A stretch of DNA of 64,000 bases. Origin: an uncultured Prevotella sp. GTDB taxonomy: Bacteria > Bacteroidota > Bacteroidia > Bacteroidales > Bacteroidaceae. Position 1 is the first letter of the stretch; each line of letters begins with the position of its first letter. Shown piece by piece: positions 49,598-54,719 of the stretch. A model generated the notes under the pieces. The model had not been told where the DNA came from, searched no databases, and saw nothing but the letters and a program-made list of their open reading frames with translations. The position numbers and the translations under genes are program-made. The stretch covers positions 23,147-87,146 of the forward strand of contig CAMOGW010000005.1 in the NCBI GenBank assembly GCA_946614435.1, given 5' to 3'.

Positions 49598-52500
49598 TTA
49601 TTCCAAATAGTACTTCTGCCGCTCCTCTGGTGTAAGTGGGCGGTTCTTGAACCGTTCGCGAGTCTGGTCAATAAGGTCTTCAAGTGGTGGGAAGTCCCAA
49701 ATCCTAATGGTGCGGTCCCATGATGCTGAGACGACGCGGTTGCCATCGGGGCTGAAGGAAGCAGAATTGACACATTTTGTATGCCCCTCCAGCTTTTGCA
49801 GTTCCTTTCCTGTCTGTGCATCCCAAATTCTAATGGTTTTATCGTATGATGCTGAGACGATGTACTTGCCGTCGGGGCTGAAGGAAGCGGAATTGACACC
49901 GTTTGTATGTCCCTCCAGCTTTTGCAGTTCCTTTCCTGTCTGCGCGTCCCAAATCCTAACGGTGTTATCGTAAGATGCTGAGACGATGTGTTTGCCGTCA
50001 GGGCTGAAAGTAGCAGAATAGACTTCGCCTGTATGCCCCACCAATTTATTCAGTTCCTTTCCAGTCTGCGCATCCCAAATTCTAACGGTTTTATCGAAAG
50101 ATGCTGAGACGATGAACTTGCCGTCGGGGCTGAAGGAAGCAGAATTGACACTTCCTGTATGCCCCTCCAGCTTTTTCAGTTCTTTTCCTGTTTGTACATC
50201 CCAAATTCTAACGGTTTTAGCCCTTGATGCTGAAACGATGTGCTTGCCGTCAGGACTGAAGGAAGCATCCCGGAATCCCTCCAGTTTTTTCAGTTCCTTT
50301 CCTGTCTGTGCATCCCATATCCTAACGGTATAATCACTTGAAACTGAGACAATGCGCTTGCCATCGGGGCTGAAGGAAGCAGACTTGACACCGCCTGTAT
50401 GTCCCTCCAGTTTTTTCAGTTCCTTTCCTGTCTGCGCATCCCAAATCCTAACGGTTTTATCACTTGATGCTGAGACAATGCACTTGCCGTCATGGCTGAA
50501 GGAAGCAGAACTGACATTATCTGTATGCCCCTCCATTTTTTTCGGCTCCTTTCCTATCTGTGCATCCCAAATCCTAACGGTTTTATCGTATGATGCTGAG
50601 ACGATGCGCTTGCCGTCAGGGCTGAAGGAAACAGACTTGGCAAGGCTTGTATGTCCTTCCAGCTTTTTCAGCTCTTTTCCTGTTTGTGCATCCCAAATCC
50701 TAACGGTATTATCCATTGATGCTGAGACGATGCGTTTGCCGTCGGGGCTGAAGGTAGCAGAGTGGACAACGTATGTATGTCCCTCCAGCTTCTGTAGTTC
50801 CTTTCCCGTCTGTGCATCCCAAATCCTAACGGTTCCATCATGTGATGCTGAGACGATACGTTTGCCATTAGGGCTGAAGGAAGCATATTCAACCCATTCT
50901 GTATGTCCCTCCAGTATTTTCAGTTCCTTCCCTGTTTGTACATCCCAAATCCTAATGGCTTTATCCCATGATGCTGAGACGATGCGTTTGCCGTCAGGGC
51001 TGAAGGAAGCAGACTCGACGACGTATCTATGCCCCTCCAGCTTTTTCAGTTCCTTTCCTGTCTGTGCGTCCCAAATTCTAACGGTTTTATCACCTGATGC
51101 TGAGACGATGCGCTTGCCGTCTGGGCTGAACGAAGCAGAATTGACTCTTATTGTATGCCCCTCCAGCTTTTTTAGTTCTTTTCCTGTCTGTGCATCCCAA
51201 ATTCTAATGGTTTTATCCCATGATGCTGAGACAATGCGCTTGCCATCAGGGCTGAATGAAGCAGACCTGACAACGTCTGTATGCTCCCTTAATACTGCAT
51301 CATCACGTATGCAGGCTGAACGCAATGCTGCTTCAGCTTCTGCAGTATAAGGTCGATGGGGAGGCAAGGCTTGCAATGCGATGAGTCGGGCCAGATAAGA
51401 ATCGTGGTCGTCTGTCAGCTGTTTGGCTTTTTCTGCTAACACGCGAGATAGATTCGTTTGATAGCCTTGATTGGCTACCGACAGCTGCTGCTCTCTTTCT
51501 GAAAGCTGTTGGTAGGACTGAGAGAGTTGTTCATTTGCACTATCCTTCTGCTCATTCGCAAGTTGTAAATGGTTGAGTACTTGTTTCAGTCTGTCATTGG
51601 TCCGTTGGATGGAATCACGCTCATGACGTAGTTGCTCTTCCTGATTTGCAATGGTGTCTCCCTGACTTTGGTTCTCATTGAAAAGATATAGGATATAGGC
51701 CATCACCCCCAAGCAGATCAAAGCAATAGCAGCGACACCTGCCATCCACTTTAATCGCTTCCTGCGCTCCCGCTTCTCCTTTAGCCCAGCTAACGGCTCG
51801 CAGAACGAGTCGTGTATCAGCTCTATGCGGTAGTTACTGCCATCCGACGAGGTAGAGGTGCGCTGCAAAATGCGGGTGTCGCCCTCCAAGAGGTCTTTGC
51901 CTTTAGGCACATGCAGCAGAAAGTCGCTCTCGGGAATGGAGTTGCGACGGCCTGTGCTATCCACAAGGTGCTCTTCAATGTAGGATTTCTCATGGTCGGA
52001 GAAGCCACGGGTAGCCTCGTTATAGAACCGCTCGAAGGGGTTGCCCTTGATGAAGTTATCGACAAGCGCAGGGGTGATGTGATCAGCATCTGACTTCTTC
52101 TGGAAATCCGTGAAGATGCGGCTGCACAGCAGGGAAATGATGTTGGTGCTGATGCTATCGTCCTCGTTGCGCGACTTTGAGATGATGGCATCGGCAATAG
52201 CCGTCTGCTCCTCTGTCTTAAAAAGGTCTCCTCCTGGGATAAGAATGACATCTTTCGCCCCCTGCTCCGTGAGACTACGCAGGCGATAGCGGCAGCGTTT
52301 CAGCTCTGAAAGGTAGTTGTTGTCTATGCTGTCTTCCAGCCGGTAGAGGTCGTCCTCACGGATGGAGGCGACGAAGCGGAAGTTGAAGTCGTATTTATAG
52401 GGCTGCCCCTCCACCATGCGAGCGGTGAGGGCATGGCTTTCATCCGTCAAATAGGCAATCTGTCGGAGCAGGACTTCTGCTTCCGGGCGACGGTTGCGGA

Positions 52501-52984
52501 AAATCTCTTCAAACTGGTCGAGCACAATGACGGGGAAGAGCGTGCGGCCCTCGCCATCCACGAATCGGGTTCGGGCAAAGTGGCTCCACAGATAGTCAGG
52601 AGCTTCTTCGTCGGCTGGCATGGGGACAACCTCTACGGTCTGCAGCTGGCCCAGATGTTCACTGACCGCTTGTGACAGGCGATGAACGATGCATTGCTGA
52701 AAACTGATGTCGCGGGCATCCATCGAAAGACGGATGCTGACGGGCAGATAGCGCTTTTGGCGTAGACGGGGGAACACGCCGGCATTGAGCAGCGAGGTCT
52801 TGCCAGTGCCGCTCTTGCCGTAAAGGGTGACGAAGATGTTGCTGCAGATGAGCTGGGTGACCTGATGCGACTCATCGTCACGACCACAGAACAGTTTGGG
52901 CTTGCGGCCCTCACGTCTGGCTTTCTCAGGGTCTTCGTAGGAAGACAGACCAGCCCAGGGATTGTTGTCTATATAATTACTCAT
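49598..52984 (-). CDS. nSTAND1-type P-loop NTPase - TM helix - coiled coil - 13 WD40 repeats
   Basis: [27 protein letters not shown] (Walker A), [10 protein letters not shown] (Walker B), [32 protein letters not shown]...WD repeats. Confidence 0.9.
49690..51290 (-). repeat. Tandem 126-bp near-identical WD40-coding repeats (13 copies, one 12 bp shorter)
   Basis: Recurring gatgctgagacgatg, gggctgaaggaagcag and tcccaaatcctaacgg blocks at 126-bp period. Confidence 0.93.
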
Positions 52985-54362
52985 GCCCGTTCAAATGTTT
53001 GTCGATAGCTTTTTGGAGATTGCCGAGCGCATTAGGCTCTGAAAGACTGATGCCGGAAATACTGTCTCCGATGATCTGTTCAAAGACTGTGTGATACGAT
53101 TCACGCATGGAATAGCCTTCGACAGCCAATGGGATGACGGCCAACTCGCCTTTGCGGTTGGCTGCCTGCCGCCACTCGTCATGATAATAGTGGTCGGTCT
53201 GTCCGTTCTTCAAGTCTTCGGCTACCGTTGATGTCAGCAAGGGGATGAAGACCTTGGCATGGCTAATGCCATACTGAATTTCAGTGTCGTAGTTGTCGCC
53301 CCCACGTATGTTTTCCTGATCGAACCAGAGGTTTGGGTAAATCTGACGGAGCTGTTGGAACAGTTGTTGTGCCAGCTCCTTGTCCTTATTGCAGTAGGAG
53401 AAGAAAATCTTGCCCTGTCGGCGGTACTGGGTGACAAGATTGCGATAGGGGTTGTCCGCGTCGGTGGAGGTCAGCACTTTCGTCATCTGGCGCATGAACT
53501 CACGGGCTGTCAGCTCAGTCTGGGTAATGGCACGCACGTTTTTCAGGTAATTTTCCAATTTCAGATCCGAACGGTCGTTCCTGTTGAAGGCAATGGCGAT
53601 ATCACCATCTCGTTGCTTCATCTCCTCGCGACGTAGGATGTACCAGAAGAAACGGAAATACCAGTCGTCGAACTTGCAGCCCAGGGAGAGCAGACGCTTA
53701 CTGAGAATAAACAGCATCATCAGGTTTTTGCGTTTGTCGAACTCAAGCCATCGCTCTATGGTCTGAATATACTCAAAATCCTTGCGGGCATAGAAACAGC
53801 CCTCTTTCTCCTCACATTTGCCGAAAGCATAGATGAGCGTGGGCTCATAATAATCCCTGACCTCTTTGTATTCAGCCAGCCGGTCGTAGAAGCTGGAAAG
53901 CGAGGACGTATCCCACACGTTGACCACCCGGAGCCTGCTGCCCCAGATGTCGCGCATCAGGATTTCGAGATAGCTGTCGAAAGTCGTGGTAATGACCACC
54001 TTGAAAAGCTTTGTGCGCAGTAGTCCCTGCAACTCTTCTGAAATGTCATCGACCACCATGCTCCGTTTGAACCTGTCCCATGAAAGCAGGTTGCGTATAG
54101 GGTCAATCTCTGTGCCGGAGTGCCGCATCAGATCGTCGAAGTTCCTGTAGCTTGAATTCAACTTGCGGTTGATGTGTCGCAGCAGATAGTCGTTGATGTC
54201 GCCCGACGGCTCCACCGTTGGCTTGAGCATCACTTCGCTGCCAATAATCAGGATGTATTCATTGTTGAACACACGCCCGATGGACTCTTCCATGTTGAAC
54301 TTCAGGTCCTGCAAATTGTTAAGAGCGTAATCTATATCTTCTTCGTCTGGTGTGAATGCCAT
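52977..54362 (-). CDS. SIR2-like domain plus C-terminal TIR domain protein
   Basis: ITTTFD..LE and LL.LGC.F.DW.FRF (SIR2_2-like); KIFFSY...D, LWFD...I.GGD.Y..EI, FIPLLT, DEW (TIR); -7 promoter at 54399-54406 supports ATG 54362. Confidence 0.82.
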
Positions 54363-54719
54363 TGCAGTCAAGTGTTTTAGGGGTACGATTTTGGGGTACA
54401 AAGATAGTGTTTTTTCTGAAATTGGCCTGCTATTTTGGATAAAAATCTTGAACGGGAGGCTACTTTTCGATATTCTTCTGATAGACAACGGGTAAGGCGG
54501 TTTGGTTCGTCTAAATAAGGCGTGAGAAAAATGACGGGGAAAATGAGCAAAGTAGGGAAAATTAACACGTTTTTGACGGGGAAAAGGAGTGTGAGTGGTG
54601 TTCTATAACAGAACTTTGGTGTTCTGTTTCTCTGATTTTGCTCGTTTTTCAGCACCTGTTTGGGCTTTTTTCTGTAAAATGATGCTTAGATGAAAGCCCT
54701 TTGGCGGTTCAATAGCAAT

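Follow-up and report, generated by a model that had tools for sequence, protein, structure and literature searches.

The closest described relatives of the module considered here are the nSTAND1 systems, which were named in section 7 of the work of Kaur, Iyer, Burroughs, and Aravind in 2021 (PMC8195603). The available part of its Figure 2 source data 1 lists the architecture "nSTAND1+TM" (TM, transmembrane) 461 times, "nSTAND1+TM+BetaPropeller" 304 times, and "TIR+DrHyd" 103 times, and many of its two-gene rows, from Bacteroidales, Cytophagales, and other phyla, place a TIR-bearing gene before a gene for nSTAND1+TM+BetaPropeller; section 7 itself is silent on membrane topology and on the TIR to nSTAND1+TM operon. 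The locus analysed here lies in a stretch of 64,000 nucleotides (nt) of an uncultured Prevotella sp. (contig CAMOGW010000005.1, positions 23,147 to 87,146 of the forward strand), hereafter the window, and consists of two genes: gene 1, which encodes a SIR2-like (sirtuin-fold) domain followed by a TIR domain, and gene 2, which encodes an nSTAND1 ATPase, a predicted membrane helix, a long helical stalk, and a WD40 propeller (Table 1). Like the catalogued systems it combines an nSTAND1 ATPase, one membrane helix, and a β-propeller with a TIR-bearing gene directly upstream; unlike them, whose partners in the available rows carry the label TIR+DrHyd or TIR, it has in gene 1 a sirtuin fold on the N-terminal side of the TIR domain. 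In the same source data "SIR2" is found in 8 entries, all in other contexts, and "sirtuin" is absent; rows labelled "TIR->" (e.g., HAA22846.1 and KKO17953.1) could represent the gene 1 family with the sirtuin part unrecognised.

With PF20703 above its cut-off, intact Walker A and B motifs, a variable C-terminal domain, and an effector gene next door, the module belongs to the nSTAND1 systems and not to Avs or Thoeris. The STAND switch, the repeat sensor, and the NAD+-consuming output (here predicted) are shared with Avs/AVAST, especially with Avs5 (PDB 9jap, 9nc9), which the sirtuin fold also matches, but here the effector is encoded by a separate gene, the sirtuin is degenerate, and a membrane helix lies between ATPase and sensor. 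No match to an Avs model was found in PADLOC 2.0 and NCBIfam 20, and neither PADLOC nor NCBIfam gave a system-level name for the pair; the PADLOC comparison had been proposed in the first-pass annotation, made from the letters of the window alone. With Thoeris it has in common a SIR2 fold nearest to ThsA and a TIR domain with the catalytic Glu, whereas here SIR2 and TIR are joined in one chain, the SIR2 domain lacks the Asn and His needed by ThsA, and the partner is a STAND protein; a Pfam scan revealed no SLOG or Macro effector in the pair or in the window. The active defence sirtuins ThsA, KomC, DSR2, and SPARSA share the fold with gene 1 but not its substitutions at the catalytic Asn and His.

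For the Thiohalocapsa STAND-CLec proteins a variable sensor carried by a STAND-type protein and predicted to lie in the periplasm had been put forward earlier, according to the accessible text of 10.1101/2023.09.22.558884; there CLec is varied by a diversity-generating retroelement, whereas here WD40 repeats are varied by repeat exchange and point change and a dedicated TIR partner is present. SIR2 does not appear in the accessible main text of Kaur et al. 2020 (PMC7159879), the accessible part of a large STAND survey (PMC12803255, PMC13581612) mentions "transmembrane" once, in an unrelated legend, "nSTAND" is absent from the available text supplements of PMC13581612, and in the accessible part of 10.64898/2026.10.19.760177 nSTAND1 appears only as a ParA fusion. 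A literature search, to which most subscription papers were closed, yielded no paper describing or testing SIR2-like+TIR with nSTAND1-TM. The first-pass annotation had not recognised the two-gene layout as a named, tested system, while leaving room for an earlier bioinformatic description; the available source data of PMC8195603 do list TIR with nSTAND1-TM-propeller, and the papers searched contained no test of that layout. What appears to be new here is the dead-sirtuin partner together with a HET-like diversification of the sensor; the split TIR and nSTAND1-TM-propeller layout was already catalogued in 2021.

The two-gene module is real, conserved, and mobile. The co-orientation and the 8 bp overlap of the two open reading frames (ORFs), first noticed in the earlier annotation, were confirmed on the minus strand at 52977-52984. 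The survey of pair conservation which it suggested was run over 48 loci, one genome per species, with record titles of Bacteroidales or Bacteroidia except for two firmicute metagenome-assembled genomes. The STAND gene stands directly downstream of gene 1 in 44 of the 48 loci, mostly within 15 nt (three of the 44 with a split gene 1); of the other four, two are cut off by the end of the contig, and in two the STAND gene lies upstream, at a distance of two genes. More distant genomes supplied another 16 non-duplicate regions, 15 of which keep the same gene order. L050-L052 and L075 (locus numbers are our own) duplicate earlier loci, and L053-L058 were replaced by longer cuts. As regards mobility, miaA directly adjoins the YegS/diacylglycerol-kinase-family gene in all 17 same-genus genomes matching the latter gene, and here the two are separated by an 8.9 kb segment with a G+C content of 0.46 against 0.54-0.55 in the flanks; therefore the pair is cargo of an insertion. 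Metagenome contigs that also link 46120-46180 directly to 55127-55148 probably stem from other species with the empty site.

The pair is single-copy in its own genome (2.06 Mb, 56% complete). Of 200 genus genomes, 10 gave a strong match (E<=1e-20), and across the phylum 9 of 401 genomes matched the sirtuin part at any strength; for the sirtuin-like part there are 1743 clusters at 50% identity with E<=0.001 and 909 at 1e-10, and all 132 representatives of at least 400 amino acids (aa) among the matches listed carry TIR. A fused long form with effector and STAND in one chain was not found among 6187 candidates, 6 matches covering 12-24% of the query, which is weak evidence. Several loci depart from the simple pair: L004:4369-12343 has one sirtuin-TIR gene between two STAND genes, L005 and L007 have the STAND gene upstream of its partner with two small conserved genes between, and L046 has two divergent complete pairs. 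From these arrangements, several receptors may share one sirtuin-TIR partner. L067, the sirtuin of another system without a STAND gene, was excluded from the family.

Gene 1 matches Pfam SIR2_2 at residues 122-272 with 29.7 bits (cut-off 24.5) and TIR_2 at residues 319-417 with 56.9 bits (cut-off 28), while gene 2 matches nSTAND1 (PF20703) at residues 9-254 with 70.4 bits (cut-off 27.1); together with the basic stretch, hydrophobic helix, coiled coil, and 13 WD40 repeats of gene 2, the domains named in the first-pass annotation are all present. The AlphaFold2 model of gene 1, with a predicted local distance difference test score (pLDDT) of 82.6, was matched by Foldseek to ThsA, KomC, Avs5, SPARSA, DSR2, and FAM118B, and ThsA is the closest match of the SIR2-like fold (E 1e-9). 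The earlier proposal that SIR2 acts as an NAD+-consuming effector does not agree with the residues at the active site, where the catalytic Asn and His are replaced. In the profile alignment TTTFD of gene 1 corresponds to TTNFD of SPARSA and TTNYD of KomC, and GSE to GAG of KomC; in alignment with two intact-motif sirtuins Thr127 stands at the catalytic Asn and Phe180 at the catalytic His. The sirtuin His is found in none and the Asn in 2 rows of a 51-row alignment, and among 148 distant representatives TTN[YF]D occurs in 2 and [KH][LIMF]HG in none. The pocket-lining residues Gly41, Thr125, Thr126, Asp129, Gly181, and Gly228 are retained.

Judged by these substitutions the SIR2-like domain is very likely not an enzyme, yet it is strongly conserved, and because it is devoid of the catalytic Asn and His the TIR domain is likely the sole enzyme of the pair. 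Glu396 of the TIR domain aligns with the Glu of the WCWDE motif in the TIR of Cat1, its best solved relative, and is kept in 50 of the 51 rows. Cat1 is an NAD+-degrading filament. A weak PADLOC similarity of this TIR to ThsB (E 2e-6) was also obtained. The accessible texts of 10.64898/2026.03.01.708072 and PMC12700824 report that N113 and H153 are required for SeThsA activity and N163 and H206 for FAM118, respectively.

At L066:5138-6172 a sirtuin with intact TTNYD and KLHG, and without TIR, overlaps a STAND-helix gene by 4 nt. Its motifs suggest a candidate active-sirtuin form of the module and perhaps the older state, and an intact sirtuin before a STAND-helix gene fits a history in which TIR took the place of a working sirtuin. 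In L009, L011, L017, L024, and L064 gene 1 is broken up or shorter, by assembly error or decay.

In gene 2 the Walker A and B residues G59, G61, K62, D156, E159, and E160 are invariant in 51 of 51 rows; a search by sequence for a solved relative of the ATPase module found none. The predicted membrane helix was assigned by hydropathy and charge: the best Kyte-Doolittle 19-mer of gene 2 reaches 2.55 at residue 417 (only 1.13 in gene 1), and the predicted helix is 23 residues long and uncharged. A hydrophobic 19-mer (threshold 1.6) is found behind the ATPase in 59 of 64 STAND ORFs, and of the five without it one is truncated by the contig, two are fragments left by frameshifts, one has a visible helix but an anchor motif that was missed, and one (L048) is a true loss. 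Lys and Arg are more frequent before than after the helix in 58 of the 59 (means 6.6 versus 2.3), which supports the membrane helix with positive-inside skew proposed at first pass. The outward sensor proposed there is backed by L068 and L060, in which the region C-terminal to the helix shares some 600 aa of homology (E 3e-16 and 5e-32, respectively) with the mature portion of a protein encoded next door, one that starts with an apparent signal peptide, judged by eye. CHASE2 is an extracytoplasmic sensor domain. One row in the available source data of PMC8195603 has CHASE2 behind the helix. From hydropathy, charge, and these homologues an N-in/C-out topology with the propeller outside is likely. 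The stalk at 443-526 appears as one long helix in a single-sequence model, with low confidence; the single-sequence AlphaFold2 model of residues 1-795 has a mean pLDDT of 52, the ATPase part being below 50. When the ATPase module (residues 1-405) and gene 1 were modelled as a complex, each with a 51-row alignment, the score was 0.02 against a mark of 0.32, control pairs not having been folded, and this result counts neither way.

Variants of the STAND gene were also observed. The helix-less protein at L048:10373-13837 carries TIR and hexapeptide repeats instead and is likely a cytoplasmic derivative, and in L014 the STAND gene (10362-11660) is followed by separate genes of 151 aa and 707 aa. 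In L059, L068, L071, and L073 the STAND gene is followed by a protein of 1030-1070 aa with an apparent signal peptide, homologous to the receptor outer domain, and such an exported homologue could possibly be a soluble co-receptor or decoy.

The outer part of the receptor is the most changeable one. Among 43 C-terminal parts Pfam WD40 was recognised in 25, the others having TPR, LRR, several membrane helices, or no Pfam family, and sister ATPases carry different sensors (e.g., L032/L019, L035/L015, L003/L013). In the window ten internal WD40 repeats are 76-90% identical in DNA (mean 82.5%), and their variation is nearly confined to positions 8, 9, 11, 27, and 29, with position 21 varying less; the pairs 9/11 and 27/29 lie 18 positions apart and bracket residues that are invariant or nearly so. 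The ratio of nonsynonymous to synonymous change (omega) at codons 9, 11, 27, and 29 is 1.72 against 0.27 at the remaining codons in 11 window repeats, and 1.57 against 0.18 in 63 repeats of 7 genes, values inflated because they come from short alignments of repeats that recombine; a parsimony count against the overall synonymous rate gave p of 4e-4 for the window and 4e-7 for the 63 repeats. These figures are weakened by the fact that the variable positions were seen in the window repeats before the codons of the fungal HET-D and HET-E proteins were compared. In 8 of 11 genes the repeats resemble one another more than they resemble those of other genes; in 1 the two similarities are equal, and in 2 the order is reversed. 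In short assembled contigs, joints inside the WD40 array, which would bear on repeat-number polymorphism between strains, are indistinguishable from misplacement.

The same pattern, with repeats about 80% identical or more and few hypervariable codons, characterises HET-D/HET-E. In the accessible parts of PMC1805685 and PMC13449251 these fungal proteins are described with near-identical WD40 repeats, concerted evolution, and two fast-codon pairs at the same spacing, namely codons 7/9 and 25/27, 18 apart, located on the binding face and under positive selection (Paoletti et al. 2007, PMC1805685); highly conserved WD40 repeats are also noted there for bacterial NLR-like proteins (PMC13449251). 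Unlike the window pair, HET-D and HET-E as described there have NACHT and not nSTAND1, a fused effector, and a cytoplasmic location. By this comparison the variable repeat positions of gene 2 may form a protein-binding face, and fast change at such a face fits conflict better than housekeeping sensing.

Taken together, and with moderate confidence, the pair is read as an inner-membrane receptor with an outward diversifying propeller, a clustering switch, a dead-sirtuin adaptor, and a TIR domain that consumes NAD+. Gene 2 would sit in the inner membrane with the ATPase inside and the WD40 propeller outside, and a foreign protein would bind the variable face; the threat could be a phage protein in the periplasm, a toxin of a competitor, or a predator. 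Binding would cluster the receptors via stalk and helix, so that the ATPase domains oligomerise, the dead sirtuin domain would serve as the docking or polymerising piece that brings the TIR domains together, and the clustered TIR would consume NAD+ and arrest the cell. The parts list, the conservation, and the repeat evolution are read from the sequence, and the functional steps are inferred from them.

Besides the inflated omega values and the order in which the variable codons were recognised, several points weigh against this reading. STAND sensors normally keep the ATPase shut by direct contact, and a membrane between sensor and ATPase would prevent this hold-off and leave the off-switch unexplained. 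The STAND protein of L048 has no helix, and that of L014 ends right behind it with the sensor absent. Distances for the two genes correlate closely (rho 0.92), which shows joint inheritance only, and the adaptor role presumed for the dead sirtuin has its conservation as the one argument. Finally, PADLOC matches (E<=1e-20) number 6 among 140 neighbour ORFs, taken from 164 in 43 of the 48 de-duplicated loci with ORFs of more than 900 aa and the last loci left out, and 6 among 120 control ORFs of the own genome; the pair is therefore not drawn to known anti-phage islands, and the anti-phage role that the first-pass annotation had drawn from known defence systems gains nothing from context.

A Toll/NLR hybrid is conceivable more tentatively, in which an NLR ATPase would signal across the inner membrane from a periplasmic propeller diversified like a fungal allorecognition receptor. 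It would detect non-self proteins, be they from phage ejection, toxins delivered by contact, or predators, before these enter the cytoplasm, and fire the TIR NADase via the dead sirtuin, a former effector turned into a plug-in polymerising adaptor.

The genes around the pair are closer in kind to the conflict neighbourhoods described by Kaur et al. than to a restriction or abortive-infection island. Other TIR genes are enriched nearby: after removal of two fragments of a split gene 1, 14 of 62 loci hold 23 such ORFs, including Macro-TIR, TIR-WD40, TIR-FGE, and TIR-Sel1 genes, and the own 2.06 Mb genome has one other TIR match. RyR-domain, CHAT-TPR, FGE-domain, MscS-like, and PrsW genes are recurrent neighbours, and a constant third gene sought across the loci was not found. 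RyR-domain proteins adjoin the pair (the cluster spans 15 of 62 loci), often with an unassigned family of 300-900 aa and an MscS-like gene, for example, at L001:6104-6397, L003:7975-8922, L010:7901-8983, L041:8433-8870, and L071:8314-8958, and a literature search found no paper on such a neighbourhood. Macro-TIR fusion genes directly adjoin the pair at L015:8308-9399 and L039:8533-9612, where they are possible receivers of an ADP-ribose signal.

These recurrent TIR, RyR-domain, CHAT-TPR, MscS-like, and PrsW genes, the weak ThsB similarity, and the lack of enrichment of known defence genes speak for a signalling alternative with the same topology and coupling, in which the product of the TIR domain is an ADP-ribose isomer that diffuses as a signal, or the domain recruits other TIR proteins, and the pair is the input of a wider immune or envelope-sensing network and not a self-contained suicide switch. 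This alternative is unlikely: no third gene is constant, 48 of the 62 loci and the window have no further TIR gene nearby, the best solved TIR relative is the NAD+-degrading filament Cat1, and a fast-changing binding face fits conflict better than housekeeping sensing.

Improbable, too, is a cytoplasmic NLR whose helix is buried, re-entrant, or inserted upon activation and whose propeller binds phage proteins inside the cell as in Avs. Characterised STAND sensors act inside cells (accessible parts of PMC12803255 and PMC13581612), highly conserved WD40 arrays are known from cytoplasmic fungal NLRs, L048 has no helix, and the helix call was made from hydropathy and charge; against this stand an uncharged 23-residue helix behind a basic stretch that is kept family-wide, the relatives L060 and L068, where what follows the helix is homologous to exported proteins, and the variants with several membrane helices. 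Still more doubtful is a sirtuin-like domain that still binds NAD+ or ADP-ribose and gates TIR as a brake lifted by the STAND protein; the fold and several pocket-lining residues are retained, but the glycine-rich NAD-binding loop is altered (GAG of KomC versus GSE).

Characterised bacterial STAND receptors sense inside the cell, and if the inner-membrane reading is true, switching through a membrane helix would bring the periplasm within reach of bacterial pattern recognition and would require the ATPase to be held off in a new manner. The window copy is a compact two-gene case with convenient handles (Walker A Lys62, TIR Glu396, and a removable helix), and the binding face is indicated by five variable codons in each repeat. 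The exchangeable outer sensor suggests a route to receptors that convert an outside ligand into NAD+ loss.

Table 1. Coordinates of the module and its parts in the window (position 1 is the first nucleotide of the 64,000 nt stretch).
Feature	Position	Strand	Remarks
Insertion, about 8.9 kb	46200-55128		Between miaA and the YegS/diacylglycerol-kinase-family gene; the pair and five more co-oriented genes
-7 promoter-like element, TAnnTTTG-type	54399-54406	minus	Pattern match; 36 nt 5' of the gene 1 ATG
Gene 1, SIR2-like + TIR	52977-54362	minus	461 aa from ATG; no hydrophobic helix
SIR2-like domain	53463-54299	minus	About residues 22-300; fold of ThsA/KomC/Avs5/DSR2 sirtuins
TIR domain	52989-53414	minus	About residues 317-458
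Gene 2, nSTAND1-helix-stalk-WD40	49598-52984	minus	1128 aa; N-terminal effector domain absent
nSTAND1 ATPase module	51785-52984	minus	Residues 1-400; Walker A 56-63, Walker B DQFEE 156-160
Basic stretch, then predicted single membrane helix	51680-51781	minus	Residues 402-412 and 413-435; hydropathy and charge
Q/E-rich long helix, predicted stalk	51407-51658	minus	Residues 443-526; length differs among relatives
13 WD40 repeats	49688-51298	minus	42 aa each, one 38 aa

The single -7 promoter which the first-pass annotation placed before both genes was retained in part: a candidate of the TAnnTTTG type, the Bacteroidota -7 consensus, occurs as a single copy on the minus strand across 766 nt upstream of gene 1, and the element can be called only promoter-like. 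A TTG at 54488 is also open as an alternative start of gene 1. In two RNA runs of one sample, contigs match parts of both genes without differences at a depth of 2-4; DNA was possibly present, and these matches are not counted as expression.

The same insertion carries a GH25 muramidase gene (48555-49376, minus; Pfam 122.9 bits), which lies 221 nt downstream of gene 2 in the same orientation as the pair and encodes an apparent lipoprotein signal; a homologue is present in one other locus only (L048). Four further co-oriented insertion genes at 46183-48529 (minus) encode a protein of 319 aa that weakly matches tyrosine/dual-specificity phosphatases, one of 184 aa with an apparent signal peptide, and two small hypothetical proteins, membrane-bound or exported. 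Elsewhere in the window a second island of low G+C content (0.30-0.43) at 33177-38489 (plus) adjoins guaA and contains an AbiH-family gene, a 943 aa gene with WG repeats and a DEDDh exonuclease, and a YhcG (PDC-S02) gene.

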